This document shows positions 4,649 through 61,924 of a stretch of DNA of 64,000 nucleotides, piece by piece; position 1 is the first letter of the stretch; each line of letters begins with the position of its first letter. The notes below the pieces were generated by a model. It saw nothing but the letters and a program-made list of their open reading frames with translations, did no database searches and was not told the origin of the DNA. The stretch covers positions 14,507 to 78,506 of the forward strand of contig CALXQL010000007.1 in the NCBI GenBank assembly GCA_944390685.1, read 5' to 3'. Made by a program: the position numbers and the translations under genes. Source of the DNA: an uncultured Alphaproteobacteria bacterium. GTDB lineage: Bacteria; Pseudomonadota; Alphaproteobacteria; Rs-D84; CACZYB01.

Positions 4649-5833
4649 TTAATTATTTCTTTTTGCTCCAAAAGCCCCTTGAAATTGTAAATTATAATCA
4701 TCAGCAGAAGGGCTATTTTCCAACTTATAATCATCTTTTTTATTAGTATCTATAAAATTGATACCTCCAACAGCCTCTATAACTTTTTGTGTTGTTGGTT
4801 CATAATAATAATTTATAGAAAAATTATTGTTAATTATGTTACCATCTCTATCTTTAATAATGTTTTCACTATTAGGGTGTAAAATATCTTTATATTCACT
4901 ATCTGTATTTAATTTATATAAAAATGCATTATTACCAGAGCTTTCTCCTTTTGGATTATCAAATTTTAAATTTACAATATCATTACTCTCTTGTATAGCA
5001 GTTACATCATACCAATTATCAAATTTCATATTTAATGTAGATATTGGATTTCCATTATTCCTTTGAAAAGTTAAAGTAGCATTTCCATCAAGTTTTCTTG
5101 TTGTTTCTATCATTCTGTTTTCAGTAGTAGAAAAACCAGTCCCTGAAACATAACCTAACGCTTTACCAGTAAAAGCAATTTTATCCGTTTCTATTTTAGT
5201 TGTATCTATTTTTCTTTGATCATACCCACCAAAGAAACCAACAGAAAATTCTTCTGCTTCCAAATTTGTAGAACATATTCCATTATAACATTGAACCTTA
5301 TTACCTTCATTATCATATTCAAATTCCACAGTTTTAGAATCCAAAATACCAAAATCTGAATAAGTTAAATCTAATTCAATTCCCTTTGAAATAAATTTCC
5401 CTTCTTCTTCTATATAATGAGAGCCACCTTCACTTTTCCGTAATGATTTAAATGTATTGGAATCACCATCTCTTTCAAAAGATAATTGTTCATCTGGTAA
5501 TGAAAAAGCAATAATTTTACCATTTTTATCAACATCAAATTTTGCCTTTATTAAACTACCTTCTTCATATGATATGAGTTCTACATCATCTATATAAGCA
5601 TATTCATTTTTTGTTGTATTATTTGCAAATCTAACTTTTGAAGTTTCAGGATTTGATATCATTATTGCACTTGCAAGTGATGTAACTTGTTTATTACTAT
5701 TTTTAATTTCATCTGAAATTTCTATTGGTAAATTGATGTTTGGAAGACTACTTCCTCCTACTATACTTCCACCACCACCACAAGCAGTTAATAAAATTAA
5801 AGAAGATATAGATATTTTTAAATTGTTTTTCAT
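4649..5833 (-). CDS. Surface lipoprotein with a TbpB/fHbp-like C-terminal beta-barrel domain
   Basis: Lipobox LLTAC followed by GGGGS. The C-terminus (FTGKALGYVSG...FQGAFGAKRNN) resembles the TbpB C-lobe / lipoprotein_5 family. Paralog of 60295..61188. Confidence 0.5.
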   Translation of the reverse strand: MKNNLKISISSLILLTACGGGGSIVGGSSLPNINLPIEISDEIKNSNKQVTSLASAIMISNPETSKVRFANNTTKNEYAYIDDVELISYEEGSLIKAKFDVDKNGKIIAFSLPDEQLSFERDGDSNTFKSLRKSEGGSHYIEEEGKFISKGIELDLTYSDFGILDSKTVEFEYDNEGNKVQCYNGICSTNLEAEEFSVGFFGGYDQRKIDTTKIETDKIAFTGKALGYVSGTGFSTTENRMIETTRKLDGNATLTFQRNNGNPISTLNMKFDNWYDVTAIQESNDIVNLKFDNPKGESSGNNAFLYKLNTDSEYKDILHPNSENIIKDRDGNIINNNFSINYYYEPTTQKVIEAVGGINFIDTNKKDDYKLENSPSADDYNLQFQGAFGAKRNN

Positions 5834-6022
5834 GGTGTTTCTTTCATATTGTGTTTTATTGATAAATTTAATGTATATAAATATATATTATTGATAAATT
5901 GGATTTAACCCAAATCAGGATTGATGTTTATCATTACTTTATTTTAATTTTTTATTATAATAAATGATATTATCAAAACAAATAGAGACAATAATTATAA
6001 ACAGATAGATTATTAAACAAAA

Positions 6023-6050
6023 AAGCCCCAAATGCGGGGGCTTTAAATTT
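6023..6050 (-). terminator. Hairpin terminator immediately downstream (minus strand) of the tRNA 3'-half remnant
   Basis: AAGCCCC-AAATGCG-GGGGCTT stem-loop followed by T-runs on both strands. Confidence 0.4.
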
Positions 6051-6096
6051 TGGTGGCGCCTCCCAGACTCGAACTGGGGACCTGCGGATTATGATT
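6051..6096 (-). pseudogene. 3' half (anticodon loop to CCA) of a split tRNA(CAU) gene. Left junction of the island.
   Basis: The minus strand reads ATCATAATCCGCAGGTCCCCAGTTCGAGTCTGGGAGGCGCCACCA. This equals positions 32-76 of the intact tRNA at 7930..8006 with one change (G66 to A). Confidence 0.8.
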
Positions 6097-6212
6097 ACCT
6101 GCATAGACCTCGCAGAAAATCAATAACAATCACCAAACATAACTCCCGATTAGACTCTTAATTTTCTATTTATCGATATTGATTATCCCCTGTTATTATA
6201 TGGGCATATCGA

Positions 6213-6231
6213 TGTCAAAAAATTGTCAAAA
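6213..6231 (-). promoter_or_regulatory. Tandem TTTTGACA motif pair (11-bp spacing), about 115 bp inside the left island end
   Basis: The plus strand reads TGTCAAAAAATTGTCAAAA. Same motif as 7769..7790 and 17614..17634. Candidate integrase arm-type or regulator binding sites. Confidence 0.4.
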
Positions 6232-6780
6232 TTATTCGTTTAATTCAGGTAAACCTATCCTTGATAAATAATGAGAAAAACGTATTGATAAATTTTCTCG
6301 AAAAAGTTCATTTATTGTTGTTAAATATTTATCATTGTATTGTTTTTTTACATCATTATATGGAATTGTGTAATATATCTTAAAATCAATAATTAATTCA
6401 TTTAACGATTTTTCTCTATCTTCTTTTAACAAAAAATAACGTTCATCTTTATTTTGCTGAATTTTTTTATATTGTTCGCTATTTATACGAGTATGTTTTA
6501 CATTAAGATAAAATCCCTCTCTGATTTCTTCTGTTAAAAAGGCTGGTAGAATCATGATATTTGGTAAATATTGATGACAACTTTGTTTATCATCTAATTT
6601 ATTGTCTTTACATTGGCATAAATCACAATCTTGAGATAATACTACAACATATGGTAAATAAGCCTCTTTTAGTTTTTCACCTTCTAAATATATAATTTTA
6701 AAATTTTGCAATATGTCTCCCTGACATATTCTTTCTTTATCATGACTAACGTAAAATGAATTTATATTACTGTTAAACAT
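6232..6780 (-). CDS. Hypothetical protein, 182 aa. Last gene of the three-gene operon at the left island end.
   Basis: ORF with cysteine/aspartate-rich segment VVVLSQDCDLCQCKD. No family recognised. Confidence 0.5.
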   Translation of the reverse strand: MFNSNINSFYVSHDKERICQGDILQNFKIIYLEGEKLKEAYLPYVVVLSQDCDLCQCKDNKLDDKQSCHQYLPNIMILPAFLTEEIREGFYLNVKHTRINSEQYKKIQQNKDERYFLLKEDREKSLNELIIDFKIYYTIPYNDVKKQYNDKYLTTINELFRENLSIRFSHYLSRIGLPELNE

Positions 6781-6782
6781 TA

Positions 6783-6986
6783 TTAATCTTTTCTTAAAAT
6801 TTTGAAAATATTTTCACATAATACTTGTTCAGAAAAAACATTTCTTTTATAACTACCATCGGATATGGAAGAATCGTAATAATCTTTAATAAAATTAAAT
6901 TCTTTTTCTTCAGAAATTATTATATCATTACATTTTATACCACTATTTTCTTTTGTAGAAAATTGATTTTCTAGAATTTTATCCAT
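6783..6986 (-). CDS. Hypothetical small protein, 67 aa. Middle gene of the operon.
   Basis: Tightly packed between its neighbours: 2-nt gap on one side and an 8-nt overlap on the other. Confidence 0.4.
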   Translation of the reverse strand: MDKILENQFSTKENSGIKCNDIIISEEKEFNFIKDYYDSSISDGSYKRNVFSEQVLCENIFKILRKD

Positions 6987-7695
6987 TTAATTTACTCCTT
7001 AAATCATCTGTAATACTCTTTTCAAATAAATCTTGAATAATTCCATGAAAATTATTCAAAAGAGCAATTATAGTTTTTTCCGATGGAAAATCCTTTGTTG
7101 AAACATCTATATCTAGTATAAAATCATTTTTCTTAATTAATGGAGCAGGATAATTTGGATTATTTATTCCAAAATTGAAAATAACATTTGAATCATCAGA
7201 TTTAAATGACAACTGTTCCATATATCTATTTAAAGATAAATTTTTTAAACTCTCAGCAAAATTATAAATTGAAAATAAATTAGTATCTATATAACCTATC
7301 TTACTAATATTATCTATAGGAATATTATTTATAAAGCGCAATCCTAATCTTTTATATGAAATATCATTTTTATAAAGTTCTTCAAATTTTCCAAATATAC
7401 GATTAAAAATATCCAAAAAATCTTCAAATGTAGTATATTTTTTTAATTCAAAAATTAAGGAATTGCATGATAATGAAATTTTTAATTTTTCTTTTTCAAA
7501 TTCAAAAATATTGATTAAAGAGAAACCATTTTCTGATGGAATTAATATTTTATTTTTATTGTTATTATAATCTAACAAATCTTTTACAAATTCTTCTTTT
7601 ACATCACTTTTCAAAGAATTGATTTCAGAAAAATCCAATCTACAAATAACATTAGTTATATAATTGTTATTATATCTGATACCATCATAACTCAT
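6979..7695 (-). CDS. Hypothetical protein, 238 aa, possibly TIGR04255-like. First gene of the operon.
   Basis: N-terminal ITNVICRLDFSEI and internal RLGLRFINNI resemble my recollection of the TIGR04255 family pattern. Not verified. Confidence 0.45.
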   Translation of the reverse strand: MSYDGIRYNNNYITNVICRLDFSEINSLKSDVKEEFVKDLLDYNNNKNKILIPSENGFSLINIFEFEKEKLKISLSCNSLIFELKKYTTFEDFLDIFNRIFGKFEELYKNDISYKRLGLRFINNIPIDNISKIGYIDTNLFSIYNFAESLKNLSLNRYMEQLSFKSDDSNVIFNFGINNPNYPAPLIKKNDFILDIDVSTKDFPSEKTIIALLNNFHGIIQDLFEKSITDDLRSKLNG

Positions 7696-10498: not shown

Positions 10499-11266
10499 AT
10501 GTTCAATTATAATGAATTACTTAAATCTATCTTTCCAATAGGACTTACAAGCAAAAACGATATTGAAAATATAAAAGATTTTAATGGAACTGCATTTTTA
10601 GTTAATTGTTCAGGTTTCCTTTCTGTTATAACAGCATATCATTGCGTGTCTAGTATTGCAAAATATCGTTTCAAAGTGACATCTGAAGATAATATCACAA
10701 CCGATATGATAAAAAAGGTTTTAGAAGATAATATTAATTTTGGATATATAAAATCAAATAAACAAATTTATAGCATTCCTATTAGTAATATTTTTAGAGG
10801 GATTTCTGAGGTCGGTAATAATATTGATACCATCATTTGCAAAGTTAATGAAACTGACATGATAAAAAATAATAATACTTCTCTTTCTGATTTAAAAGCA
10901 TTAGAAATTTCTACTAATAAGCTTATTATTGGTAATTATTATGAATTTTATGGTTTTCCTAATATTAATAGAGATAAAATTAATAAAATAATATATATGG
11001 ATAGTAGAAAATTAAAGTTAATTAAATTAGAGCCAAAAGAAGATTATGGAAATGCTGTTTATGGATATTTAGATATAACTCATACTAAAGATACTCTTAA
11101 AACAATTGAAGGATTTAGTGGTTCCCCATTGTTTGATAGTACGGGTAAAATTGTTGGAATATTAGAAGAAATAAATGAAAATGATAAACATATAAGATTT
11201 ATAGCTCTAGATACTATAATTTATTTTATGACAAATATAATTAAAAATAATTTTCACATATTTTAG
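10499..11266 (+). CDS. Cytoplasmic trypsin-like (S1 family) serine peptidase
   Basis: His motif ITAYHCVSS and Ser motif GFSGSPLF. No signal peptide. It starts 26 nt after the R-M gene stop on the same strand. Confidence 0.6.
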   Translation: MFNYNELLKSIFPIGLTSKNDIENIKDFNGTAFLVNCSGFLSVITAYHCVSSIAKYRFKVTSEDNITTDMIKKVLEDNINFGYIKSNKQIYSIPISNIFRGISEVGNNIDTIICKVNETDMIKNNNTSLSDLKALEISTNKLIIGNYYEFYGFPNINRDKINKIIYMDSRKLKLIKLEPKEDYGNAVYGYLDITHTKDTLKTIEGFSGSPLFDSTGKIVGILEEINENDKHIRFIALDTIIYFMTNIIKNNFHIF

Positions 11267-11278
11267 TTTTTAATAGAA

Positions 11279-11761
11279 TTAAAATAAATTATCTATATTA
11301 TCTAATATATTATCAGAAATTTCTATTATTTTAATAATATCTGTACAGATATTTAATTTTGGAGGTGTATCATTGTAATTATGTGCCAATCCATGCCTAA
11401 AATTTAAAAAATCTTTGAAAATACTAATATCATAATTTTCTATACCATCATCTAAAAATGATAATTTTTCTTTAGAAATATTAAAACCTTTTAATAGAGA
11501 TTTTAAATCCTCTGGTTTTAAACCTCTATGTAATTTAGGCATTTTCTCAAAATAAGAATTTATGTAATCATTATCAGTTTTTAATTTTTCTTTTAAAATA
11601 TTTGTTAATTGTGTTTCTATATCACTATATAATACAAGAACAATATATTGGTTAACAATACTTTTAGCAAAATCAGTATCTGCCTCTTTTGGCAACTTAT
11701 CTAAAATTCCGCTTTTTATCTGCTTATATATACTATTTGTTTTCTTTAAATATTTAATCAT
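11279..11761 (-). CDS. HEPN-like small protein, 160 aa
   Basis: R-x4-H motif in FLNFRHGLAHNY. Its start overlaps the stop of the upstream DUF262 gene (ATGA), which suggests translational coupling. Confidence 0.45.
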   Translation of the reverse strand: MIKYLKKTNSIYKQIKSGILDKLPKEADTDFAKSIVNQYIVLVLYSDIETQLTNILKEKLKTDNDYINSYFEKMPKLHRGLKPEDLKSLLKGFNISKEKLSFLDDGIENYDISIFKDFLNFRHGLAHNYNDTPPKLNICTDIIKIIEISDNILDNIDNLF

Positions 11762-12827
11762 TATTTAATACTGAATATGCTATTTTTAACCTATCGTTAA
11801 CATTTTTTGTAGAAATAGTTCCTTGTTGTGCTTCATATATTTTTCTGTAATCTTCGTTATTTTTCAATATTTCATAACGTTCTTTTAAATTTGTAATACT
11901 TGTATCAGAAAGCATTAAAGCAGTAATAACAGAATCTAACAACACATAATTAGGGCGAGTATAAATAGTAAAAGGTTTTTCTCCCAATTCTCTAATTAAT
12001 AAATCGGCTACAGACTTAAATTTTTCACAAAATTCATCAATATTTTTATTTTTATTATTATGACAAAAGATATTTAAAAAAGGCTTCATACTAGTTTTGT
12101 ATGTATTAAGCACCTGTTCTTCTTTATTCCAATCATAATAGAAAGCAACCAGTCTCAACAAAAGTTCAACATCTGTATATCTATTATCACAACTATCCTT
12201 ACCTAAAATCTTACGCCAGTTTGAATCTTTATTTAAATCTTCTAAACTTTTTATTAAAGTTCCGTAATTTATTGCTCTTCTAATTTCCATATTATTTAAA
12301 TTTTGCCCACCTGTATTTAATCTTTCAAATACTCCATATAATACTTGAATATCAGAAGAATCTATTTGTCTTATCATACATGCGGATAATTGAGCTGATT
12401 TTAATTTTTCTTGAAAATTTTTAGGTAATAAGGAAAAAGTTTTTCCAATAAATTTTTCATTTACATCAACTAATTTGAAATTATCTTCTAAAAATTCATT
12501 AATGGTAGAAATACGTTGATATCCATCAACTATTAAATAAGTTTCTTTCTCTACAATTTTATATAAAAATACTGGAGGAATTGGGTAATCAAACAATAAT
12601 GATTCTATGAAACGACTTTTACCTCGTTGATTCCAAACTTTATTTCTTTGAAAATCAGGTTTATAAAATATTTTTTCTTTAAATCTTCTATTGTATTCTT
12701 CTAAAGAAAAACTTGCTGGATATGTTATTATTTCTGAAGCAATTTTATCTATTTCTTCTGAAGTATGTTCTATTTCTTCTATATCAATATCTTCTTCATT
12801 TAAATTTTCTTTGATTGAGTTTTCCAT
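11754..12827 (-). CDS. DUF262 (ParB-like/GmrSD N-terminal domain) protein, 357 aa
   Basis: DGQQR-type motif IVDGYQRIST and downstream FERLNTGGQNL motif. No fused DUF1524/HNH domain. Confidence 0.65.
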   Translation of the reverse strand: MENSIKENLNEEDIDIEEIEHTSEEIDKIASEIITYPASFSLEEYNRRFKEKIFYKPDFQRNKVWNQRGKSRFIESLLFDYPIPPVFLYKIVEKETYLIVDGYQRISTINEFLEDNFKLVDVNEKFIGKTFSLLPKNFQEKLKSAQLSACMIRQIDSSDIQVLYGVFERLNTGGQNLNNMEIRRAINYGTLIKSLEDLNKDSNWRKILGKDSCDNRYTDVELLLRLVAFYYDWNKEEQVLNTYKTSMKPFLNIFCHNNKNKNIDEFCEKFKSVADLLIRELGEKPFTIYTRPNYVLLDSVITALMLSDTSITNLKERYEILKNNEDYRKIYEAQQGTISTKNVNDRLKIAYSVLNND

Positions 12828-12969
12828 TTTTAACCTTTCATAAAATATACAGTATAATTTTACAATAATTTATCTAATAAAATCAAGTTATTTTATATTG
12901 AGAATTTATGATTTTATGATATTATTGTACAAGTTAAAATACAAGAATTTAATCATAAAGGATAAGACA

Positions 12970-13587
12970 ATGGATAATAATAGTAGATGGGATGAAATAT
13001 ATAACGATGTGAATAATAAAATATTAACAGAAGAAGAATTTTTTGAATTTATAAAAAAAGATAATACAGATATTTTATCTGAATCTATTAATGAACAAGA
13101 TGTAAAAAGTATATTCAAAGAAACAGCATTTTCAGTTGAAAATATAGAAAAGATTGAAAAATATATTAATTCTGTTAATCAAGAAGAAAGCTCTAATATA
13201 AATCCAAATGATATTCCATCAAAAGAAGAAGTTTTACAAATATTAAAAGATATGAAAAATTTTAATATGTTTGAATTATATACATTTTTAAGAAAAAAAG
13301 ACAAATCTGATGATGCAAACAAAGGTAATTCAAATAAAGTAAATGTTAGAGAAAAAATAAAAAAATTAATGAAAAAACGTTATGAAGAAAACAAGAATCA
13401 AACAAAAAAAGAACTCATTTATACAACATTAGAAGAATATTTTTATAAAGACAGTATAAACAATTTTGCAAAAGCAACTGGTATTGATATAAATGATATA
13501 AAAAAATGTTTAAAACAAAATTCTAAGCACTATTATTATGGGGATAGAGCTCTTGAAAAAATCTGTAAAGAACTAGGTATAAGTTAA
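12970..13587 (+). CDS. Hypothetical protein with a probable C-terminal HTH (island cargo)
   Basis: Likely start MDNNSRW at 12970 (RBS AAGGA upstream). The ORF track starts at 12898, an upstream in-frame extension. The C-terminus ...GDRALEKICKELGIS is HTH-like. Confidence 0.45.
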   Translation: MDNNSRWDEIYNDVNNKILTEEEFFEFIKKDNTDILSESINEQDVKSIFKETAFSVENIEKIEKYINSVNQEESSNINPNDIPSKEEVLQILKDMKNFNMFELYTFLRKKDKSDDANKGNSNKVNVREKIKKLMKKRYEENKNQTKKELIYTTLEEYFYKDSINNFAKATGIDINDIKKCLKQNSKHYYYGDRALEKICKELGIS

Positions 13588-13609
13588 CCTATTAAAATCT
13601 AAAATTTTA

Positions 13610-13643
13610 AACGCTGTAATATATTATTTTTACAGCGTTTTTT
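13610..13643 (+). terminator. Rho-independent terminator
   Basis: AACGCTGTA, 12-nt loop, TACAGCGTT, then TTTTT. Confidence 0.5.
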
Positions 13644-13659
13644 CATATCAAAAATTTGT

Positions 13660-13737
13660 GAACGACGCTGCGTCGTTCGGTTTATAAACTGGATTTTGTT
13701 TCAAAAATCTGTATAGTCATTTACATCAACGCGTTGA
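13660..13737. promoter_or_regulatory. Two GC-rich perfect palindromes in an AT-rich intergenic region
   Basis: GAACGACGC-T-GCGTCGTTC at 13660-13678 and TCAACGCGTTGA at 13726-13737, upstream of the 13757/13814 gene. Confidence 0.4.
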
Positions 13738-13756
13738 ATGAACTTGTTTTAATAAG

Positions 13757-14032
13757 TTGAGTAATATCAATAAGTTAAAGCGTAATATTAATAAAAAAAG
13801 AAAGGATTTTTTGATGACTAAATATATGTTGTCTATAAAAGACTTTTGTACTCAGTTTCCAACTTTTAAGTATGGACAAGTACGCAACCTAATCTACTAC
13901 GAAAATCGTAATGGATTAAATGATATGCAGGTCATTCTTCGCATTGGTAAAAGAATTTATATTGATGTCTACAGATGGTTTGCATGGATAGAAAAAATTA
14001 ATCACATAACAAGGGAGACACAATATGAATAG
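13757..14032 (+). CDS. Hypothetical small protein. The probable true start is MTKYML at about 13814.
   Basis: ORF track entry. RBS AAAGGA lies before the internal ATG. The stop overlaps the next gene start (ATGAATAG). Confidence 0.4.
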   Translation: MSNINKLKRNINKKRKDFLMTKYMLSIKDFCTQFPTFKYGQVRNLIYYENRNGLNDMQVILRIGKRIYIDVYRWFAWIEKINHITRETQYE

Positions 14033-14876
14033 GGCGTTAAAAAAAGTTAAGAAAGAATTGGCAAGAAAAGCAGTCAGAAAAGAACATTTGATACAAAGGA
14101 AAATTAATAAGATGATAGAAACAGAAAAAAATAGTGTAGAAAATTTAAAAACTTTTTTAAATGACATTTATATGGGTAATTCTATAAATGAAAAGCAATT
14201 TAAATGCGATATTCTAATAAAATATGCAGTTAACTGTATAAAAAGATTAAGTAAAAATAAAAAGAACTTAAATCAAAAATATAAAGAATATCTATCAACA
14301 ACTACAGTTAGCAATTATTATAAATTTTCATTTAATGATTTCAAACGTTTTATGAATATTTTATATAAAGATTCAATATATCATTTAAAAAATTGTAAAG
14401 TAGATATTGATAATATAGAAAATACGATACTTTACAAAAATATTCAAAATGTTATGAAAGAATATAAAAAATATGAAAACTATTTTGGTCGTGATTATCT
14501 TGATAACGATGCTTGTTTTCTTGAATATATGAAAAAAATGGCTTTGATTGGATATATAATTAATGTTTATGAAAGACTTGATATATATGATGATATTGGA
14601 ATATTAACTTATGACGAAACTGCTGCTGTAATTGGTCATAAAATGTCATTTATGACGTTTTATGATGACATGTATAAAACAAAACCTAGTTTTAAAAATA
14701 TGTTAGATATCAATGTATTAAAAAAAGATTTTGAATTTGTATATCCATTCTTTTCTTATTCTAATCTTTTATATTATTTAGATAAAAGCGAGAAATATAT
14801 AAGAATAGATAGAAGAATAGAAAATCAATGTCTTGATATATATCGTATTAGTATCTGGGAAGAAAATTTATTTTAA
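14025..14876 (+). CDS. Hypothetical protein, 283 aa (island cargo)
   Basis: Long ORF with a K/R-rich N-terminus, translationally coupled to the preceding gene. Confidence 0.5.
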   Translation: MNRALKKVKKELARKAVRKEHLIQRKINKMIETEKNSVENLKTFLNDIYMGNSINEKQFKCDILIKYAVNCIKRLSKNKKNLNQKYKEYLSTTTVSNYYKFSFNDFKRFMNILYKDSIYHLKNCKVDIDNIENTILYKNIQNVMKEYKKYENYFGRDYLDNDACFLEYMKKMALIGYIINVYERLDIYDDIGILTYDETAAVIGHKMSFMTFYDDMYKTKPSFKNMLDINVLKKDFEFVYPFFSYSNLLYYLDKSEKYIRIDRRIENQCLDIYRISIWEENLF

Positions 14877-14941
14877 ATAAGTAAATAAAAAAGTGGGAGG
14901 GGTAAAACTCTCTCACTTTTCAATAATATAGGAATAATAAA

Positions 14942-15413
14942 ATGGTAAGCGAATACAAGAAAGCTATTATAGAAATGGCTAGCAATGATATTTATAAATT
15001 AGCAATTACATTTTCTTTTAATATTGATGTCATTAATACTGGTTTTAATATAGATACTGTTAAAAAGAAAATCAGTGATTTTAACTGTCGATTTTTTAGA
15101 GAATATTATAATAAATGGAATTGGTATAAAAAAAATCAAAGTCAGTTCTATTCACTTTGTTGAACATCAGAATAGTTATATTCATTTACACTCTATTTAC
15201 TCTATACCTAATAAACAAGATATTAAAAATCTTGATATTATAGATACAAATTGGGTATGTAAGTATAAAGAGTTAGCAGAAAAGTGTTTTAATAAAGTTT
15301 GGTATAATGGAGATATATTTCTTACTTCAATCACAAGTAATGGATATGCAAATTATATCACAAAAGAAGTGTCTAACTATGTGTCTGATTGTGATAGTTT
15401 TTTTATTCTTTAA
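14942..15413 (+). pseudogene. Hypothetical gene disrupted by a frameshift at an A8 tract. Track ORFs 14942..15163 and 15075..15413.
   Basis: The two overlapping ORFs switch frame at AAAAAAAA (15128-15135). Joined, they give about 170 aa. Confidence 0.45.
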
Positions 15414-15420
15414 ATAAAAT

Positions 15421-15451
15421 AAGAGATAAGAATTTCGAATTTTTATCTCTT
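15421..15451 (+). terminator. Long imperfect hairpin just after the 15413 stop. Terminator-like but without a clear T-run.
   Basis: AAGAGATAA(GAATTTCGAATTT)TTATCTCTT. Confidence 0.3.
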
Positions 15452-16061
15452 ATCGCACTCTCACACACTCCGGTATAGTTTTAGTGATATTTTATAAGTA
15501 AAAAAGACAAGATATATTGCACTTTAACTTCTAGATAATTATAAAAACTGTAAATTTGATACAAGATACAGTTTTAAACATATAGATATAAGATTAGTAA
15601 TAATAGTATAAACTGAAAATTACTAACTCTTATAAAATTTACTTATTAATCATAAAAAAAATTAAACTATAGATATTAAACAATTATTAAATTAATCAAT
15701 TACGCTCTTTTCAAATAAACAATATAAATGAAGTTTTTATCTAAAAAATCTTTATATTCTAATAAATCATCAAATTCATATACGGTTTTCTGACCTGACC
15801 TATGAACGACATATACTCTAAGTTTATTACTAGAATTTAGTACTTTTTCTTTCATTTTTATAACCTATATAAGTTTATATATTATATTTATATAGATTAA
15901 AATTTTATATTTTTTAGATTTATAGGTTCAAAATACATATCAAATTCAGCATTTACAGAAATCAGTTCAGACATATAAAAATAACCATATTCAGGATAGT
16001 TTCCATACATTTTAACAAGTCCAAACATTTCGCCTGTATCTTCATCTACTTCTAAAACATA

Positions 16062-16280
16062 CTAATCTGCATTAGGTGTAAAGTAATGCAAATAAGCAAT
16101 CTTTTCTTGCTTGCAATCTTGTCCATATAGTTTTGGTACTTGTTTTAATATTGAATAAAAATGATTTATTTGAGATTTAAAGAATTTCTTTTCTTCACTG
16201 TGAGAAATATAATTCATAAAGACAAGAAATTGTGATTTATTGAAGAATTTTCTTATAAAAACTAATTTTTCTATATCCAT
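16062..16280 (-). pseudogene. Hypothetical gene with an in-frame TAG. The reading frame continues about 55 codons downstream to about 15895.
   Basis: After ...HYFTPNAD-TAG the same frame reads YVLEVDEDTGEMFGLVKMYGNYPEYGYFYMSELISVNAEFDMYFEPINLKNIKF. Confidence 0.35.
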
Positions 16281-16362
16281 ACTATACCTCGTTCTTTTAT
16301 ATATTTAATTATACATTGCAACGAGATAAAGTACACAAGAAATGGCTAATTTCTGCGATAAA

Positions 16363-17454
16363 CTACAAGTCTTTATTATCTATATTGATAAAATTATCAA
16401 CCATATTTGCAACAACAGATTTCTTATGTTCATTTGAAAGATGGGCATATCTTTTAACCATTTGTAACGATTTATGACCTAATACATCAGCAATCTCAGA
16501 AGCGCTTGCCCCATTCATTGCTAAATAACTTGCACAGGTATGACGTAAATCGTGAAATCTAAAATTCTCTATATTTGATTGATTTAATGCTTTATACCAT
16601 GATTTATCAAGATTTATTGGAACATTGCCTTTTCTGTTAGGAAAAAGATATTTAGATTGTGTTTTTTCTTTCATATCTTTTAACATATCACAGATTTTAC
16701 CATACAAAGGTAAAGTCCTTCTTTCTCCATTTTTAGTATCTTCCAATGTTGCCTGTGATTTATCCAAATCAACATCTTTCCATTGTAAAGTAAGAATTTC
16801 ATTCTTTCTTGCACCTGTTGTTAATGCTAAAAGAATAATAGGATAAAGATATTGATTTTCTGAACGTTTAGCATTTTCAAACAAAGCCTCTCGTTCTTCG
16901 TTTGTAAGATAACGAACGACACCTTTTGGTTGTGGAAACTTTTTTATATTTGCGACGGGATTTTTATCAATCCATTGTAATTCTTTTACAGCATAAGTAT
17001 ATAACGCACTCAATGCTGCAATATAGTGATTTAAAGTAGATTTTGTTTTTGCCTTATTATGTGGTGTCGGAATTTCTGCAATTTTGTTAATAGTATCTCT
17101 GATAGTTTTTACATTAATTCTGCTTAGTAAATAATTACCAATCAAGTCTTTCCAAACCTGTAAAAGATGAGGTACTTTTTGTCCCTTATTAATATAAACA
17201 CTAGAATTTTTACCTTTATTCGGTAAAACGTATTCTGAATAATAATCTATAAGTTCAGCCAAAGTATGCTTTGTTGCCTCTTGTTTATCATCATATTCGC
17301 CAAGTTTTATTTTGGTTTCAATCTTGTTTGCCCATTCCTCAGCCATTCTTTTTAATGGAAAACTTTTCATTACTGATGGAGTTCCCTTAATCCTTACTCT
17401 TGCATACCAAACTGTTTTACCTTTATTGTTTACTCTTGAATTAATTGTTGCCAT
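16363..17454 (-). CDS. int: Tyrosine recombinase / phage-type integrase
   Basis: 363 aa. The C-terminal catalytic region HDLRHTCASYLAMNGASASEIADVLGHKSLQMVKRYAHL carries the R..H..R..Y signature. It sits about 350 bp from the right attachment site. Confidence 0.9.
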   Translation of the reverse strand: MATINSRVNNKGKTVWYARVRIKGTPSVMKSFPLKRMAEEWANKIETKIKLGEYDDKQEATKHTLAELIDYYSEYVLPNKGKNSSVYINKGQKVPHLLQVWKDLIGNYLLSRINVKTIRDTINKIAEIPTPHNKAKTKSTLNHYIAALSALYTYAVKELQWIDKNPVANIKKFPQPKGVVRYLTNEEREALFENAKRSENQYLYPIILLALTTGARKNEILTLQWKDVDLDKSQATLEDTKNGERRTLPLYGKICDMLKDMKEKTQSKYLFPNRKGNVPINLDKSWYKALNQSNIENFRFHDLRHTCASYLAMNGASASEIADVLGHKSLQMVKRYAHLSNEHKKSVVANMVDNFINIDNKDL

Positions 17455-56440: not shown

Positions 56441-58939
56441 ATGAATATGGTTGAAAAAATAAAAGAAAATGATATGCAAAACGAAAACATTAAAAACGAA
56501 GTGATGAATGAAAATGAAGATATGTGTCTTCTTCCACTTCGTGATATAGTTGTTTTTCCTTCTATGTTAGTTCCAATATTTATAGGAAGAGGTAAATCCA
56601 TTGCTACAATAGAAGAAGCAATGAAACGCGATAAAAAAATAGTTGTGGTTGCACAACGTGATGGCAATATAAATAATCCAAATCAAAAAGATTTATTTGA
56701 AATAGGGGTCAAAGCAAACATCATACAAATGTTGAAACTTCAAGATCACACAATAAAATTGTTAATTGAAGCAACCGATAAAGTTAAAATCAATACATTA
56801 AATATGTCAAAACCATATTTAACTGCATCAATTGAATACATAAACGAAGATTTATATAGTGATGATAAGGATATTGAAATTTTGACTCGTGCAATAATAA
56901 ATACATTTACACGTTATGCACGATTAAACAAAGATATGATGATTGAAAATGTATCTGATATAGATAAAATCAATAATCCTATTTTATTAATTGATACAAT
57001 AATAATGAGTTTAAATACAAAGGTTGAAAAGAAACAAGAAATACTTGAAACAAATAATTTAAAAGGTAAATTGGAAAAACTCTATGCTATTTTGGAAACG
57101 GAACTTGAATTTGTAAAAATAGATAGACGTATAAGAAATCGTGTAAAACAATCCATTGATAAAAATCAAAAGGAATTTTACTTAAACGAACAAATGCGAG
57201 CCATACAAAAAGAACTTGGAGAAGATGATGAAGATTTTATAATGCTTGAAGAAAAATTGGAAAAATTAAATCTTCCAAACCAAGCATTGTTAAAAGCAAA
57301 AAATGAATTAAAGAAATTGAAGAAGATGTCTCCACAATCACCTGAGGCAAGTGTGATAAGAAATTACATTGATTGTATTTTTGAACTTCCATGGTCTAAA
57401 AAAAGCGAACTTCAAACCAATATAGATTTGGCGGAAGATATTTTAAATAAGGAACATTATGCACTTGAAAAGGTAAAGGAACGTATTTTGGAATTTTTAA
57501 GTGTGCAAAAAAGAGTAGGGTGCTCAAAGGGAACAATCCTTTGCTTTATGGGTCCTCCTGGGGTTGGAAAAACATCTCTTGGAAAATCCGTTGCACATGC
57601 TACAGGTAGAGTATTTGAAAAACTATCTCTTGGAGGTGTTCATGACGAAGCGGAAATAAGAGGACATCGTCGCACCTATATTGGTTCACAATGTGGAAAA
57701 ATATTAAACACAATGAAAAAAGCCGGTGTTATAAATCCGCTTATTATGCTTGATGAAATTGATAAAATGGGAAATGACTATAAGGGCGATCCTGCAAGTG
57801 CTATGTTGGAAGTTTTAGATCCCGAACAAAATAATGCCTTTAACGATCATTATTTGGATATAGATTATGATTTATCAAATGTGATGTTTATTGCTACGGC
57901 AAATAGTTATGATATTCCAAAACCTCTTCTTGATAGAATGGAAATAATTGAAATTTCCGGTTATACCGAGGAAGAAAAACTTGAAATTGCAAAGCATCAT
58001 ATAATTCCAAAAACCTTATTAAAAAATGGATTAACAAAGGATGAATTTTTAATTACCGATGATGCAATTAGAGATATTATAAGATATTATACAAGAGAAT
58101 CCGGAGTTCGTGGATTGGAACGTCAAATTGATAAATTGATGAGAAAATCCGTCCTTAAATTATCAAATAATATGGACGATTCTACCGAAGATTTATTTAA
58201 TATAAATAATAAAAAGAAAACAAGCCCAACCCAATCTATGATAAAAATTACAAAGGATAATTTAAAAGATTTCTTGGGTATTCAAAGATTCGATTATGGT
58301 AAAAGCGAAACCAAAGATGCCATAGGTATGGTAACCGGTCTTGCTTGGACCGAAGTAGGAGGAGAACTTTTACAAATAGAATCCGTTGCAATGATGGGTA
58401 AAGGTTTAGCGGTTTTTACTGGAAAACTTGGTGATGTTATGAAGGAAAGTATTGAAACTGCAAAATCTTATGTAAGGGCAAATTCTCTTAAATTTGGTAT
58501 CAATCCAAAAATTTGGGATAAATTGGATATTCATATCCATGTTCCCGAAGGAGCCACACCAAAGGATGGCCCTTCCGCTGGAATTGGAATGATGACTTCA
58601 ATAGTTTCCACTCTTACCGAAATACCAATAAGAAAGGATATAGCAATGACGGGAGAAATCACATTGCGTGGTCGTGTTCTTCCAATTGGTGGGTTAAAGG
58701 AAAAATTGCTTGCCGCATTACGTGGAGGTATAAAGGAAGTTTTAATTCCTTATGAAAATATTAAGGATTTAGAGGAAATCCCACAACTTGTAAAAGATGG
58801 ATTAAAAATCACTCCGGTAAAAACTGCGGACGAAGTTTTAAAATCCGCTTTAACACAAGCATTAAAACCAATAAAACAAGAAGAAAATTTATTTGAAACG
58901 ATTTTGAAAACCCCACAAACACCAATAAGTATTCAATAA
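56441..58939 (+). CDS. lon: ATP-dependent Lon protease
   Basis: AAA+ GPPGVGKTS. S16 site PKDGPSAGIGM. Confidence 0.95.
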   Translation: MNMVEKIKENDMQNENIKNEVMNENEDMCLLPLRDIVVFPSMLVPIFIGRGKSIATIEEAMKRDKKIVVVAQRDGNINNPNQKDLFEIGVKANIIQMLKLQDHTIKLLIEATDKVKINTLNMSKPYLTASIEYINEDLYSDDKDIEILTRAIINTFTRYARLNKDMMIENVSDIDKINNPILLIDTIIMSLNTKVEKKQEILETNNLKGKLEKLYAILETELEFVKIDRRIRNRVKQSIDKNQKEFYLNEQMRAIQKELGEDDEDFIMLEEKLEKLNLPNQALLKAKNELKKLKKMSPQSPEASVIRNYIDCIFELPWSKKSELQTNIDLAEDILNKEHYALEKVKERILEFLSVQKRVGCSKGTILCFMGPPGVGKTSLGKSVAHATGRVFEKLSLGGVHDEAEIRGHRRTYIGSQCGKILNTMKKAGVINPLIMLDEIDKMGNDYKGDPASAMLEVLDPEQNNAFNDHYLDIDYDLSNVMFIATANSYDIPKPLLDRMEIIEISGYTEEEKLEIAKHHIIPKTLLKNGLTKDEFLITDDAIRDIIRYYTRESGVRGLERQIDKLMRKSVLKLSNNMDDSTEDLFNINNKKKTSPTQSMIKITKDNLKDFLGIQRFDYGKSETKDAIGMVTGLAWTEVGGELLQIESVAMMGKGLAVFTGKLGDVMKESIETAKSYVRANSLKFGINPKIWDKLDIHIHVPEGATPKDGPSAGIGMMTSIVSTLTEIPIRKDIAMTGEITLRGRVLPIGGLKEKLLAALRGGIKEVLIPYENIKDLEEIPQLVKDGLKITPVKTADEVLKSALTQALKPIKQEENLFETILKTPQTPISIQ

Positions 58940-59054
58940 ATTGTTTTCATTTTGTTCTTGACTTTTTATAAAAAATAGTGTATATTAAAATATGACTAAT
59001 AGGATAATTCTCTCTCTCCATATTATTTTGTTAGTTATTTTGATTTTTTAACTA

Positions 59055-59083
59055 ATCCACATATATTTATGTGGATTTTTTTA
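59055..59083 (+). terminator. Rho-independent terminator after lon
   Basis: ATCCACATA-TATT-TATGTGGAT, then T7. Confidence 0.6.
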
Positions 59084-59101
59084 TTTATGAAAGGAGTTTT
59101 A

Positions 59102-59284
59102 ATGAAAAAATTTTTTACAATAATATATAATTTTTTAAAAAAATGTTTTGTAAATGAATCCGGTCATATAAGATTGAAAAGATTGCTTGCAACCTTATTG
59201 ATATTATCTTATATAGGGATATCAATTTACAATAAACATTTTGAAAATCCCTCACAAATTTTAAGTTTATTATTGGGAGTTTAA
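59102..59284 (+). CDS. Small membrane protein, 60 aa, possible holin. The ORF track start 59069 is rejected.
   Basis: RBS AAAGGAG before the ATG at 59102. One C-terminal TM helix. Confidence 0.4.
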   Translation: MKKFFTIIYNFLKKCFVNESGHIRLKRLLATLLILSYIGISIYNKHFENPSQILSLLLGV

Positions 59285-59285
59285 A

Positions 59286-59447
59286 ATGAGCAATACAAAA
59301 TTAGATAAAGTCAAAAATATTTTGAATAATATGCTCGAAACTCCACTTGAAAAAAGAGATGAAAAATGGTTTGAGGAATATAAAAAATACCTCACAATAG
59401 AAACAAAATTATTTCAACAAAAAGAATTGGATGAAAATGGTAGATAA
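59286..59447 (+). CDS. Small hydrophilic protein of about 53 aa (below the ORF-track cutoff)
   Basis: ATG follows the preceding stop with RBS GGAG. Reads MSNTKLDKVKNILNNMLETPLEKRDEKW... Confidence 0.3.
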   Translation: MSNTKLDKVKNILNNMLETPLEKRDEKWFEEYKKYLTIETKLFQQKELDENGR

Positions 59448-59646
59448 AATTAAAACATTTATGTTTCAAATTATATCGGGGCTTCTTGCCCTGATTTTTT
59501 TTTATTATAAAGGGAAAAAGAAAGGTCAACAAGAAGAAAGGATAAAAACACAAAATGAAACAATTAAAAAAATTAAAAGCAAAAATGAAATTGCTTTATC
59601 TATTTCTAATACCGATATTAACAAATTGCACTATCGGGACAAATGA
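59431..59646 (+). CDS. i-spanin/holin-like membrane protein, 71 aa
   Basis: N-terminal TM FMFQIISGLLALIFFYY then a K/E-rich tail. It overlaps the next gene out of frame. Confidence 0.4.
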   Translation: MKMVDKIKTFMFQIISGLLALIFFYYKGKKKGQQEERIKTQNETIKKIKSKNEIALSISNTDINKLHYRDK

Positions 59647-59755
59647 TAGTTTTTGCCTCCTCTATACCCCATTGCTTCCAAGTATAAATGATACAAAAGA
59701 AACAATACAACATTTAAATATTTATTATGAACTATATGAAATGGAATGTAAATAA
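59555..59755 (+). CDS. o-spanin-like small lipoprotein, 66 aa, overlapped with the preceding gene in another frame
   Basis: Signal peptide plus lipobox ILTNC. Rz/Rz1-like overlapped gene architecture. Confidence 0.4.
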   Translation: MKQLKKLKAKMKLLYLFLIPILTNCTIGTNDSFCLLYTPLLPSINDTKETIQHLNIYYELYEMECK

Positions 59756-60165
59756 TGTATGATTTAATAAAAAAATATGAAGGATTTAAAAGCCATTCTT
59801 ACCAATGTCCATCTGGAATTTGGACAATAGGTTATGGATCAACATATATGAATGATGAACCTGTAAAAAAGGGTATGAAAATCACACAACAAGAAGCCGA
59901 AAATCTTCTTCATAAATGGATAGAAAAAGAAGTATTACCATACATCAAAGATTTAACATTAAAAGAAAAACAAAAAGAAGCACTAATCTCTCTCATTTAT
60001 AATATAGGAGGTCCAGCTTTTCAAAAATCAAAATTACGAATCGCAATAAAAAATAAAGATTATAGTGAGATATGTAAACAATGGGACTTTGGTTTTAATT
60101 CGGGATTAAAAGGATTGATAAAAAGAAGAATAGAAGAACTATATATTTTTATAAACGAAATATAA
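59755..60165 (+). CDS. Phage-type endolysin (GH24 lysozyme)
   Basis: YEGFKSHSYQCPSGIWTIGYG matches the GH24 catalytic region (EG...Y.D..G.WTIGYG). Confidence 0.75.
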   Translation: MYDLIKKYEGFKSHSYQCPSGIWTIGYGSTYMNDEPVKKGMKITQQEAENLLHKWIEKEVLPYIKDLTLKEKQKEALISLIYNIGGPAFQKSKLRIAIKNKDYSEICKQWDFGFNSGLKGLIKRRIEELYIFINEI

Positions 60166-60294
60166 TATTTTTATATTTTTTGCATTACATTCCTATTTTT
60201 AGACTTAAAATTATTGCAATACAATATTTTATATCATATTATGCAAGCGACAACGGATGGCATATCAATTTTGCAAATTTTAAGGAGGGGGAAA

Positions 60295-61188
60295 ATGCAA
60301 AAGAATATTTCGTGTTTTATTTATATAATGTTATCATTCATTTTAACCAATTGTGGTGGTGTATCATTATTGGAAATTCCAGTTATAACACCACCCCATG
60401 AAGATGGTGGAGACTCTTCTTCTAATCCAGATGAGCAAGAACCTATTCCAAGTGAAGAAGAATTAAAGAAAATTGTGAACGAAGTTTTAATAAATGGAGA
60501 AAACATTACACCAATTTATTCTAATACAATAAACTCTTTGGATATAGAAAATAATAATATAGAATTTATTGATGATAAAAATGGTTCATATACAAATTCC
60601 ATAGATGATAATATAACAAAATTTAATTTTAAAATTAGTAATTTCAAAGATAAAGGATCTTTTTATGAAAATGTAAATGCAAATGGTGATACATTGATAT
60701 TGTCCGGAAAGCATTTAGGTCTATCCTATGCTGATATAGGAATGATATATAATTCAAATAATTATACTTTATTAAATAATATGTATGATACAACAAAAGT
60801 AATTGCAAAGGATGAGATAAACAAAGATACAAATTTAACCTTTACCGGTAAGACTTTGGCTACTATTACTACTGGCTATGATACGGATAAAGATTTTCTA
60901 ACTGGAAACATAGAATTAAATTTAAATAATGGCGATGAAAATTTGGTAATATCTTTTGATAATTATTATACATTTTCATGGGATAATAAATATGTTAGAA
61001 TAAAAGGAGAAAATAATATTGATCATAAATATGATGATATTGGAGATGGTATGACTACTTTAAATTTTAATTCAATATATCTAGGAGATTCTAATATTCC
61101 AAGTGAAGTGATAGGAGATTATCAACTAACAAATACAAATTTTATAATAAATGGTATATTTGCAGGTAAAAATACATCTAATATTTAA
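60295..61188 (+). CDS. Surface lipoprotein with a TbpB/fHbp-like C-terminal domain. Paralog of 4649..5833. The ORF track start 60214 is rejected.
   Basis: RBS AAGGAGGGGG before the ATG at 60295. Lipobox ILTNCGG. LTFTGKTLATITTG...INGIFAGKN parallels the other paralog. Confidence 0.5.
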   Translation: MQKNISCFIYIMLSFILTNCGGVSLLEIPVITPPHEDGGDSSSNPDEQEPIPSEEELKKIVNEVLINGENITPIYSNTINSLDIENNNIEFIDDKNGSYTNSIDDNITKFNFKISNFKDKGSFYENVNANGDTLILSGKHLGLSYADIGMIYNSNNYTLLNNMYDTTKVIAKDEINKDTNLTFTGKTLATITTGYDTDKDFLTGNIELNLNNGDENLVISFDNYYTFSWDNKYVRIKGENNIDHKYDDIGDGMTTLNFNSIYLGDSNIPSEVIGDYQLTNTNFIINGIFAGKNTSNI

Positions 61189-61243: not shown

Positions 61244-61924
61244 ATGCAAAAAATAGAAAAACTAAAAGAAACAATGCCATATCATTTATATGATGATAGG
61301 TATATATATTATTTTACTAAAAATTCATTAAGAATTATTAATTATGTGAACCCACTTGATGTTGTGGAATATCAATTGGATAAAGATGAAATTTTTATTG
61401 ATGCTTTTGTATTAAATACAAAAACAAAGGAAATGGTTGATTTCAATATTTACTCTTCTTTTGGTATAAAAGATAGTTTCCCAGATGTATTTAAAACACT
61501 TATAAAGAGTAGGGATATAGAAATATTGAAAAGTAATAATATGCTAAAAATAATTGATAAAGAAAGTCAAAAAATAATCGCAAAAATTAAAAATGGATTA
61601 TTGGAATATCTTGATTTATTAAATACAAAAACCATAGGTGATAATTTCTTATTTATTAATAATAGTTTGAAAAAACTCACTGCAAATTTTGTGGATAATA
61701 TTGGTGAAAATTTTTTATTTTCAAATAATACATTAAAAAAAGCTCAATTTGAAATGTTAAAAAAAATTGATGATAACTTCCTTGAAAATAATTATTCTAT
61801 AAGGAGTATATATGCACCATTATTACAAGATTATCCTGAAAGATTTAAGCGGGTAATTATACATAGAGCAAATAAATATTTAAGACATAGCTTATTAACA
61901 AAAGCAACCTTATATCAAAAATAA
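61244..61924 (+). CDS. Hypothetical protein with BspA-like leucine-rich repeats
   Basis: Tandem units IGDNFLFINNSLKKL / IGENFLFSNNTLKKA / IDDNFLENNYSI. Confidence 0.4.
   Translation: MQKIEKLKETMPYHLYDDRYIYYFTKNSLRIINYVNPLDVVEYQLDKDEIFIDAFVLNTKTKEMVDFNIYSSFGIKDSFPDVFKTLIKSRDIEILKSNNMLKIIDKESQKIIAKIKNGLLEYLDLLNTKTIGDNFLFINNSLKKLTANFVDNIGENFLFSNNTLKKAQFEMLKKIDDNFLENNYSIRSIYAPLLQDYPERFKRVIIHRANKYLRHSLLTKATLYQK

Follow-up and report, generated by a model that had tools for sequence, protein, structure and literature searches.

Downstream of lon, in a 64,000-nucleotide stretch of DNA from an uncultured Alphaproteobacteria bacterium (hereafter the window), five closely packed reading frames on the + strand, ORF1 to ORF5 (59102–60165), form a cassette of about 1.2 kb that ends in a gene for a GH24 muramidase. 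We conclude that this is probably a lysis cassette of phage origin, now fixed as a set of chromosomal genes in a clade of low-GC, uncultured gut Alphaproteobacteria, resembling the lytic cassettes known as type 10 secretion systems (T10SS). The comparisons described below identify ORF3, ORF4 and ORF5 and show that the unit as a whole is conserved, that it has diverged together with the host chromosome, that ORF1, ORF4 and ORF5 are under purifying selection and that a promoter–leader–terminator unit upstream of ORF1 is conserved. The original prediction had pointed to a tight five-gene module ending in a GH24 lysozyme, and all five reading frames were found in place on the + strand; it did not include the control unit upstream of ORF1.

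ORF5 (59755–60165, + strand, 136 aa) encodes the predicted endolysin, a cytoplasmic GH24 muramidase. It matched PF00959 over profile positions 1–125 of 125 with an E-value of 2.4e-29 and 102.7 bits (curated cut-off 22.3), the endolysin family phrog_7 at 1.7e-39, and 12 solved GH24 lysozymes in the PDB, including those of P22, P21 R and E. coli RrrD, at 9e-19 and weaker. The catalytic motif of T4 lysozyme is Glu-8aa-Asp-5aa-Thr (PMC4188523). In an alignment of 30 relatives, E9 of ORF5 was invariant and T24 nearly invariant, while C18 aligned to the Asp of the PDB homologues and of T4 lysozyme; a Cys occupies position 18 in almost the whole clade, true phage copies included. A Cys variant of the GH24 catalytic motif has been described. 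The endolysin call of the original prediction holds by Pfam, PHROG and PDB sequence matches together with the retained Glu and Thr of the catalytic motif; of the catalytic Glu/Asp pair the Glu is present and the Asp is replaced by Cys. The ratio of nonsynonymous to synonymous substitution rates (dN/dS), calculated for all pairs of orthologues of ORF1, ORF3, ORF4 and ORF5, was 0.07–0.21 for ORF5, and 0.05–0.21 with the separate comparison of L010, L011 and L185 included. ORF5 has neither a signal sequence nor a signal-arrest-release (SAR) sequence, and its N-terminus is not hydrophobic (maximum 17-residue hydropathy 0.66), so some hole-forming protein is required.

The closest relatives of ORF5 in phages and prophages (61–66% identity) were found on three contigs, L005, L006 and L007. 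The endolysins of L006, which carries tail genes and an integrase, and of L007, which carries terminase and capsid genes, are each 65% identical to ORF5 and nested among the cassette endolysins in a neighbour-joining tree; therefore, some exchange with phages has probably occurred. These contigs and a further one with a different candidate endolysin, L168, encode unimolecular spanins (L006 9584–9985, L007 1882–2295, L005 9675–10013 and L168 10690–11046), which have an N-terminal lipobox and a C-terminal transmembrane (TM) helix and do not form a two-component pair. The presence of different spanin types around a shared endolysin lineage implies that the spanin type has been swapped. L005 (1–14000) comes from a more distant alphaproteobacterial genome, and its endolysin (61% identical to ORF5) lies among two BrnT/BrnA toxin–antitoxin pairs, a HicB antitoxin and remnants of a T7-type portal and terminase, interleaved with efp and flavodoxin genes, so that host genes and decayed phage genes form a mosaic there.

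Directly upstream of the endolysin gene, ORF3 (59431–59646, + strand, 71 aa) encodes an i-spanin-like protein, and ORF4 (59555–59755, + strand, 66 aa), which is read in the +1 frame of ORF3, encodes an o-spanin-like lipoprotein of the outer membrane. The small protein with an N-terminal TM helix and a charged tail that had been predicted at this position was recovered, with a TM segment at residues 9–25 of ORF3 and a Lys-rich tail of about 45 aa. The idea of an overlapped Rz/Rz1-like pair was likewise borne out by family matches, by the overlap itself, by the depressed synonymous divergence of ORF3 and by the distribution of cysteines. ORF3 matched phrog_1026 ('Rz-like spanin') with an E-value of 5.6e-6, and its orthologues did so at 0.003–0.006; orthologues of ORF4 matched phrog_1275, also an 'Rz-like spanin' family, at 6.4e-9, 2.5e-8 and 1.2e-4. 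ORF4 overlaps the final 92 nt of ORF3, and both the overlap and the +1 frame are kept in all copies. Across all pairs, dN/dS was 0.06–0.33 for ORF4 and 0.34–0.74 for ORF3, whose dS is depressed, as expected of dual coding with its second frame constraining synonymous sites. The signal peptide of ORF4 ends in ILTN/C followed by Thr at +2 (LTS/C or LPS/C followed by Thr or Ser in the orthologues), so the lipoprotein has no inner-membrane retention signal. The mature protein is 42 aa long and shares with its orthologues the invariant pattern DSFC..Y.P.LPS..D...T..HLN.YYE.Y..EC. It contains two invariant Cys besides the lipidated one, and ORF3 contains none, which is the commonest pattern among two-component spanins (Kongari et al. 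2018, PMC6139136). The combined periplasmic length of ORF3 and ORF4 (about 45 + 41 aa, or about 86 aa) also falls inside the range of 62–300 residues published for two-component spanins in the same study. An LptE gene in the window indicates a diderm envelope, whose lysis needs a spanin.

A named phage counterpart of the pair is found in Shigella phage vB_Shi_2KOFFS (Chaseviridae), whose spanins belong to phrog_1026 and phrog_1275. Here too an i-spanin of about 70–80 aa with a K-G-K..G..EER motif after the TM helix is overlapped by an o-spanin of 54–66 aa with two periplasmic Cys, and an hhalign comparison of the ORF3 profile with the 79-aa Chaseviridae Rz-like spanin gave an E-value of 1.6e-5. 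Sequence identity is low, however, at about 23–30%, and the direct comparison of ORF4 with the 54-aa Chaseviridae lipoprotein was not significant. The Chaseviridae spanins are themselves annotated by homology, and we know of no experimental test of them. A profile search with ORF3 returned only 7 clusters, and those with a named source or an inspected contig come from cassette genomes. We also considered whether ORF3 and ORF4 might be a frameshifted unimolecular spanin of the L005/L006/L007 type and rejected the idea, because the domains come in reverse order, the TM segment preceding the lipobox, and because eight lineages keep both frames. Within the part of ORF3 that encodes the TM helix lies a GC-rich, terminator-like hairpin followed by nine T (59475–59504, + strand), kept with compensatory changes in the sister species L172 (3855–3885) and a weaker or absent counterpart in the other lineage. 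It may be an internal attenuator that splits ORF1/ORF2 from ORF3–ORF5.

ORF1 (59102–59284, + strand, 60 aa) is preceded by an AAAGGAG ribosome site (59090–59096) and encodes a putative holin. It has a single hydrophobic segment (residues 28–44) with a net charge of +6 on its N-terminal flank, and its AlphaFold model, built with 12 homologues, has helices at 2–16, 25–44 and 50–58 with a mean pLDDT of 71. Orthologues are 58–70% identical, with dN/dS of 0.10–0.31. The family is small: a search of 5.8 billion proteins returned only 12 clusters, and a profile search of 1.84 billion representative proteins found only 3 representative clusters and no remote homologues. Searches of 50,697 phage genomes by tblastn with ORF1, ORF3 and ORF4 gave nothing significant, and scans of IMG/VR with ORF1 and ORF4 profiles yielded no relatives. 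Homologues of 57 aa open a presumed lysis cluster in podophage-like contigs that carry genes for a capsid protein, a T7-type portal and a YqaJ nuclease. In this cluster the ORF1-like gene is followed by genes for a multi-TM protein of 170 aa, a unimolecular spanin of 118 aa and a phrog_3108 protein of 155 aa that has no annotated function and that we take to be the presumptive endolysin. ORF1 thus fits the small TM protein of a lysis cassette, being 60 aa long and encoded by the first gene both here and in the phage contigs. We also asked whether ORF1 is a truncated copy of a 74-aa two-TM protein, the putative holin of phage contig L006, and dropped this candidate since the two share no similarity; the C-terminus of ORF1 is conserved in all orthologues. 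ORF1, taken to be an N-in/C-out single-TM protein, is the weakest assignment of the cassette. Its context suggests a role in lysis, whether as holin, as antiholin or as partner of a holin. It is the best candidate for the hole-former in the cassette, with ORF3 as the putative alternative.

ORF2 (59286–59447, + strand, 53 aa) stands apart from its neighbours. It encodes a soluble protein without a family match in Pfam, PHROG or PADLOC, and was found in the window species and its sister L172 only, where the two copies share 31% amino acid identity with a dN/dS of 0.86. We regard ORF2 as a lineage-specific insert that is doubtful as a gene or very weakly constrained, and its function as doubtful. 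Among the small reading frames, conservation therefore extends to ORF1, ORF3 and ORF4, which are intact across relatives, and not to ORF2.

Relatives of the cassette were found by a profile scan of species-representative genomes and by exact-protein look-ups; a scan of genome contigs with a single endolysin query returned nothing, and the alignment-based scan succeeded. The window species was not found in the GTDB representative set. Four metagenomic contigs of the same species encode the exact ORF5 protein, flanked by the same genes. Beyond this species, the cassette recurs in at least eight other loci of uncultured gut Alphaproteobacteria (L008, L009, L010, L011, L172, L185/L186, L189 and L181), each of which has intact ORF1, ORF3 and ORF5 as well as the overlapped ORF4. 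No phage structural genes were found within ±10 kb of the cassette in the window, L008, L010, L011 and L185, nor in the shorter flanks covered for L172 and L189, and the neighbours of the related cassettes are housekeeping or defence genes. In the window, lon flanks the cassette on one side and a lipoprotein gene on the other, as predicted, and neither Pfam nor PHROG profiles detected a phage structural or replication family between 49 and 64 kb. The closest phage-type gene is a tyrosine integrase 42 kb away, past the ribosomal protein operon, and no convincing direct or inverted repeats that would mark a mobile unit flank the cassette.

The chromosomal surroundings are shared between lineages. 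The cassette adjoins an LMWPc gene in L008, L010, L185 and L189, with GNAT-polA-tgt-rluB beyond it in L010 and L185, and tgt-polA lies beside it in L011. In the window, the corresponding stretch from TspO to polA-tgt-rluB (44.5–51.4 kb) has no cassette, which lies 8 kb further on, after lon; the cassette of L172 likewise follows lon, and the Lon proteins of the two are 85.6% identical. From this shared synteny we conclude that the cassette stayed in one chromosomal neighbourhood, with one relocation. The gene right after the cassette encodes a truncated phage MuF domain with a second GH24 domain in L010 (10468–11783) and a fusion to GH108 in L009 (1207–2130) and L189 (1101–2021); L008, L011 and the window lack it, and in L185 a remnant of 43 aa is left (10971–11096). 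L010 and L011 have a downstream gene for a lysozyme inhibitor of the LprI family (11113–11616 in the latter), and the MuF-hydrolase gene with LprI resembles a polymorphic toxin and its immunity protein. In L010 (AbiLi/AbiLii, 5615–7644) and L185 (AbiEii, 5250–6146), defence genes are found a few kb upstream of the cassette, and the site in these two genomes appears to behave like a variable or defence island.

The cassette has diverged together with the host chromosome. Its proteins are 85–90% identical where PolA is 94–96% identical and 53–65% identical where PolA is 74% identical. Among L010, L011 and L185, to which the comparison with polA and tgt was limited, dS of the cassette genes was 0.3–0.8 (with one outlier of 2.0) against 0.46–0.76 for polA and 0.59–0.81 for tgt, and dN/dS was 0.05–0.25 against 0.09 for the neighbouring LMWPc gene and 0.17 for GNAT. 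ORF1, ORF4 and ORF5 are under purifying selection, and with ORF1, ORF3, ORF4 and ORF5 intact on at least eight other contigs the module goes beyond a chance arrangement. The MuF-lysozyme gene serves as an internal control, since it decayed to 43 aa in L185 while the cassette is intact everywhere. Together, co-divergence, host-like dN/dS and decay of the neighbour argue for vertical maintenance under purifying selection, that is, for domestication. The original prediction of a stand-alone, possibly domesticated cassette rather than a prophage is in this way upheld and strengthened by the recurrence of the cassette at eight related loci lacking phage structural genes, by its co-divergence with polA and tgt, by host-like dN/dS and by the decay of a neighbouring phage-derived gene.

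The same data bear on whether the cassette is an inert leftover of a decayed prophage, tolerated because a terminator silences it and without a host function. Its phage origin is clear, HNH and MuF fragments flank it in some genomes, ORF2 is almost unconstrained and the locus lies in a variable region, all of which a decaying remnant would share. A remnant should not, however, keep ORF1, ORF3, ORF4 and ORF5 intact in all eight lineages despite near-saturated synonymous divergence, nor show dN/dS of 0.05–0.3 for ORF1, ORF4 and ORF5, equal to that of neighbouring host genes, with dS matching polA and tgt. The promoter is conserved too, which would be needless for simple silencing, and the neighbouring phage-derived gene did decay. 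We therefore consider an inert leftover very improbable and retain the domesticated lysis cassette as the preferred reading.

Upstream of ORF1 we found a conserved control region. A promoter-like element at 58958–58986 on the + strand (TTGACT, 17 nt, TATATT) matches 10 of 12 consensus positions, and its −35 hexamer, the 3' part of its spacer and its −10 hexamer vary little or not at all among all cassette copies; TGTTCTTGACTTTT and AAATAGTGTATA did not vary over 6 aligned loci with differing upstream genes. Upstream of every cassette the order is TGTTCTTGACTTTT, spacer, AAATAGTGTATAnT, leader block, terminator, ribosome site and ATG. The conserved 5' leader (58992–59038, + strand) forms a hairpin with arms at 58992–59008 and 59022–59038 and contains the invariant block ACTAATAGGATAATTCTCTC (ACTAAYRGGATAA.TCTCTC) at 58995–59014. 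Its folding has a minimum free energy of −26.1 kcal/mol with a z-score of −3.5, and the leader motif occurs once in the window against 0.08 matches expected by chance. The intrinsic terminator (59054–59085, + strand) has a 10-bp stem (59054–59063 paired with 59068–59077) followed by a U-run, and in the window it lies 5 nt ahead of the ORF1 ribosome site; across cassettes, the ribosome site and ATG lie within 10–25 nt of it. RNAalifold analysis of 6 loci found compensatory double changes in 7 of the 12 predicted pairs, 9 of which make up the terminator stem. A terminator is present in all copies regardless of the upstream gene, and in L009, L011, L185 and L189 we read by eye a tandem pair of hairpin-plus-T-run elements. 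The genes upstream of the control unit are unrelated between loci (lon, an HNH endonuclease gene and others), and for this reason the unit belongs to the cassette. The promoter itself is a putative assignment that draws on consensus and conservation. Conservation of both promoter and terminator suggests conditional expression rather than mere silencing.

An nhmmer profile of promoter and leader had matches confined to cassette loci, with no phage locus among the loci scanned. Scans of IMG/VR and JGI metagenomes with the leader motif hit unrelated coding DNA by chance, save for one true cassette, L181. An Rfam scan of 58700–60400 detected no family. A similarity in viral contig L091 (1415–1490), where a promoter-like site (GTTCTTGACTTT...AATAGTTAATAAT) directly precedes a hairpin and a T-run, was put down to a generic strong promoter. 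A conserved leader peptide was considered and dropped, as most orthologues in the alignment have no start codon for the window's short leader reading frame. L009 (60–95) and L011 (9250–9345) also share about 60 nt upstream of the promoter, reading GGAAAACTTAGCGACGAATGG.GTTAATGAGGAGCTTAGTTTGAGTTATGAGGATACAAGAA, which are absent from the window. The promoter begins only 18 nt after the lon stop codon in the window and L172; therefore, lon transcripts probably terminate at the cassette's own terminator, and any read-through would run on into the cassette.

The architecture invites comparison with phage late operons. The lambda late operon starts with PR', a constitutive-looking promoter, followed by a short leader, the terminator tR' and the lysis genes S, R and Rz/Rz1. 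The cassette resembles it in having a promoter, a short leader and an intrinsic terminator directly upstream of lysis genes, a likeness of architecture only; in contrast to lambda, no Q gene is adjacent, and the upstream genes are lon, an HNH endonuclease gene or unrelated reading frames. We found no antiterminator gene in cis in any copy and no Q-like Pfam family, and no Q-binding element or pause site was identified at the cassette promoters, although these cannot be judged from sequence. One interpretation, which we offer tentatively and with a low probability, is that the control unit is a dedicated antitermination switch of a chromosomal suicide module, read by a trans-acting factor such as a phage late regulator or a host stress signal and perhaps coupled to lon read-through in the window lineage, with an orphan holin family confined to this clade and its phages executing lysis.

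A related interpretation would make the cassette an anti-phage lysis trap acting by abortive infection, in which the late regulator of an infecting or induced phage reads the antitermination switch and causes premature lysis. The lambda-like control layout upstream of lysis genes, the lack of an antiterminator in cis in any copy, the AbiL and AbiEii defence genes near the cassette in L010 and L185, and the fact that phages with closely related endolysins infect this clade would all fit such a trap. Yet no PADLOC defence-system model matches any cassette protein, the leader motif is in no phage contig scanned nor in IMG/VR, no Q-like gene or binding site was identified, and defence genes do not adjoin the cassette in the window, L008 and L011. 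We regard the lysis trap as decidedly unlikely.

Several observations weigh against our assignment of the parts or against the reading of a domesticated lysis cassette as a whole. ORF1 has no similarity to any holin family in Pfam or PHROG, nor a PADLOC match; it lacks the charged C-terminal tail typical of holins, its C-terminus being hydrophobic (..LLLGV), and the 170-aa multi-TM protein beside its homologue in the phage contigs could be the real holin. ORF4 of the window itself stays below the PHROG threshold (not reaching an E-value of 1), the matches being those of its orthologues alone, and it has Asn at lipobox position −1, where orthologues have Ser; Asn at this position is non-canonical under the PROSITE rule. 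The charges flanking the ORF3 TM segment (N-terminal +2, C-terminal +4 to +7) do not clearly favour an N-in/C-out topology, and ORF3 has a sub-threshold match to the Pfam holin family BhlA (E-value 0.005). No regulator and no cargo conserved across the loci was identified, and part of the selection signal could stem from time spent in phages.

Some of these points would suit a different division of labour, in which ORF3 is the holin, ORF1 an antiholin or accessory lysis regulator and ORF4 a lone outer-membrane lipoprotein. The BhlA match of ORF3 is accompanied by weak matches to holin PHROGs, the positive charge after its TM segment favours a cytoplasmic tail, and ORF1 homologues share phage lysis clusters with another multi-TM protein. 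We nevertheless think this arrangement unlikely: ORF3 matches the spanin family phrog_1026 best, its conserved overlap in the +1 frame with a lipoprotein of phrog_1275 is what marks two-component spanins, and the Chaseviridae phage has an analogous pair, a 79-aa protein and an overlapped 54-aa lipoprotein, both annotated as spanins.

With ORF3 and ORF4 kept as the spanin pair, we propose the following model. The near-consensus promoter would start a short leader RNA that is normally ended at one or two intrinsic terminators before ORF1, and this termination would silence the lethal genes, so that the cassette is probably kept silent under normal circumstances. A trans-acting factor or condition, or perhaps read-through from lon in the window lineage, would overcome termination, after which ORF1–ORF5 would be translated as a tightly coupled operon. 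ORF1, the putative holin, would permeabilise the inner membrane, and the resulting holes would release the signal-less ORF5 muramidase onto the peptidoglycan; the two-component spanin of ORF3 and ORF4 would then disrupt the outer membrane, and the cell would burst. We infer the holin role of ORF1, the logic of silencing and read-through and the lytic outcome. The benefit to the bacterium may lie in defence, or in a subpopulation that sets free its cell contents, toxins, DNA or particles.

Lytic cassettes of the T10SS type include YenLC of Yersinia entomophaga (HolA-PepB-Rz/Rz1) and ChiWXYZ of Serratia marcescens, which act by lysis of a subpopulation (PMC10847048). The cassette described here is like them in combining a holin (here a putative one), an endolysin and a two-component spanin outside a phage, in being chromosomal and in its presumed descent from phages. 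YenLC and ChiWXYZ use an L-Ala-D-Glu endopeptidase and have an adjacent transcription factor (RoeA and ChiR, respectively) and co-regulated cargo. The cassette studied here, in contrast, has a GH24 muramidase and is apparently controlled by its promoter–leader–terminator unit; its order is putative holin, spanins and endolysin, and its host is an uncultured gut alphaproteobacterium. No neighbour is conserved across the loci that could be a regulator or cargo beside the cassette. The essD-rrrD-rzpD/rzoD genes of the E. coli K-12 prophage DLP12 are likewise a phage S-R-Rz/Rz1 cassette kept in a chromosome, with overlapping spanin genes, a GH24 homologue of ORF5 (RrrD, PDB 4ZPU, E-value 2e-8) and a position downstream of quuD, a late-gene antitermination region. 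DLP12 is, however, still a 21-kb prophage remnant with a Q homologue in cis, its o-spanin gene is fully embedded and its order is holin, endolysin and spanins, whereas the cassette here is about 1.2 kb, lacks Q and is conserved across hosts whose PolA proteins are just 74% identical.

The third comparison, with the gene transfer agent (GTA) of Rhodobacter capsulatus, RcGTA, raises the possibility that the cassette is a release module for a particle or product whose genes lie at another place in the genome, such as a GTA, a tailocin or a bacteriocin-like toxin. In Rhodobacterales, the stand-alone endolysin–holin locus rcc00555-rcc00556 lies apart from the structural cluster, is vertically inherited and is needed for lysis and the release of RcGTA (PMC5026251). 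It is similarly a stand-alone lysis locus of an alphaproteobacterium, of another order; it differs in belonging to a known GTA regulon and in that no spanin pair has been described for it, and the comparison made here is one of gene content and setting. The MuF-GH24/GH108 gene after the cassette in L010, L009 and L189 and the LprI gene in L010 and L011 resemble a toxin-immunity cargo, which would suit a release function. Against this, neither the 64-kb window nor the ±10 kb around any cassette showed GTA, tail or capsid genes, and the putative cargo is not conserved, since the window and L008 lack it and L185 has a decayed copy. A dedicated release module of this kind thus seems improbable to us, and the preferred reading remains a domesticated, T10SS-like lysis cassette.

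Other features of the window lie outside the cassette. Upstream of it are a tRNA-Tyr gene, a glgX-like gene and the gene for Lon (56441–58939), and downstream are genes for a 297-aa lipoprotein (60295–61188) and a 226-aa protein (61244–61924), followed by a histidine kinase/response regulator pair. The lipoprotein and 226-aa genes have a very low GC content (21–23%) and match no family in Pfam, PHROG or PADLOC, phage families in Pfam and PHROG included, and no homologues of their products were found beside the cassettes of other genomes; they may be a lineage-specific insertion or cargo. The lipobox of the 297-aa lipoprotein, ILTNC, has the same unusual Asn at −1 as that of ORF4. Not contiguous with the lysis cassette, a small integrative/defence islet (11754–17454) encodes an NsnA/PD-T4-2_A-like defence protein (PADLOC 1.8e-58; phrog_2598 9e-61), several proteins without a family and a tyrosine-type integrase (16363–17454, PF00589 at 2.9e-35).

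Chromosomal lysis cassettes are emerging as a general route by which large toxins, enzymes, DNA and particles are released through a sacrificed subpopulation, and they have so far been known mainly from Enterobacterales and GTA producers. The present case extends the idea to uncultured, small-genome gut Alphaproteobacteria and, with its chromosome co-divergence, host-like dN/dS and neighbour decay, provides an unusually clean comparative case for domestication. While a cassette of this kind is already known from T10SS, the conserved control leader and the orphan ORF1 family, a candidate holin, are the most original features of this one. If the control element were indeed an antitermination switch, it would offer a simple model for how bacteria tame lethal phage genes.

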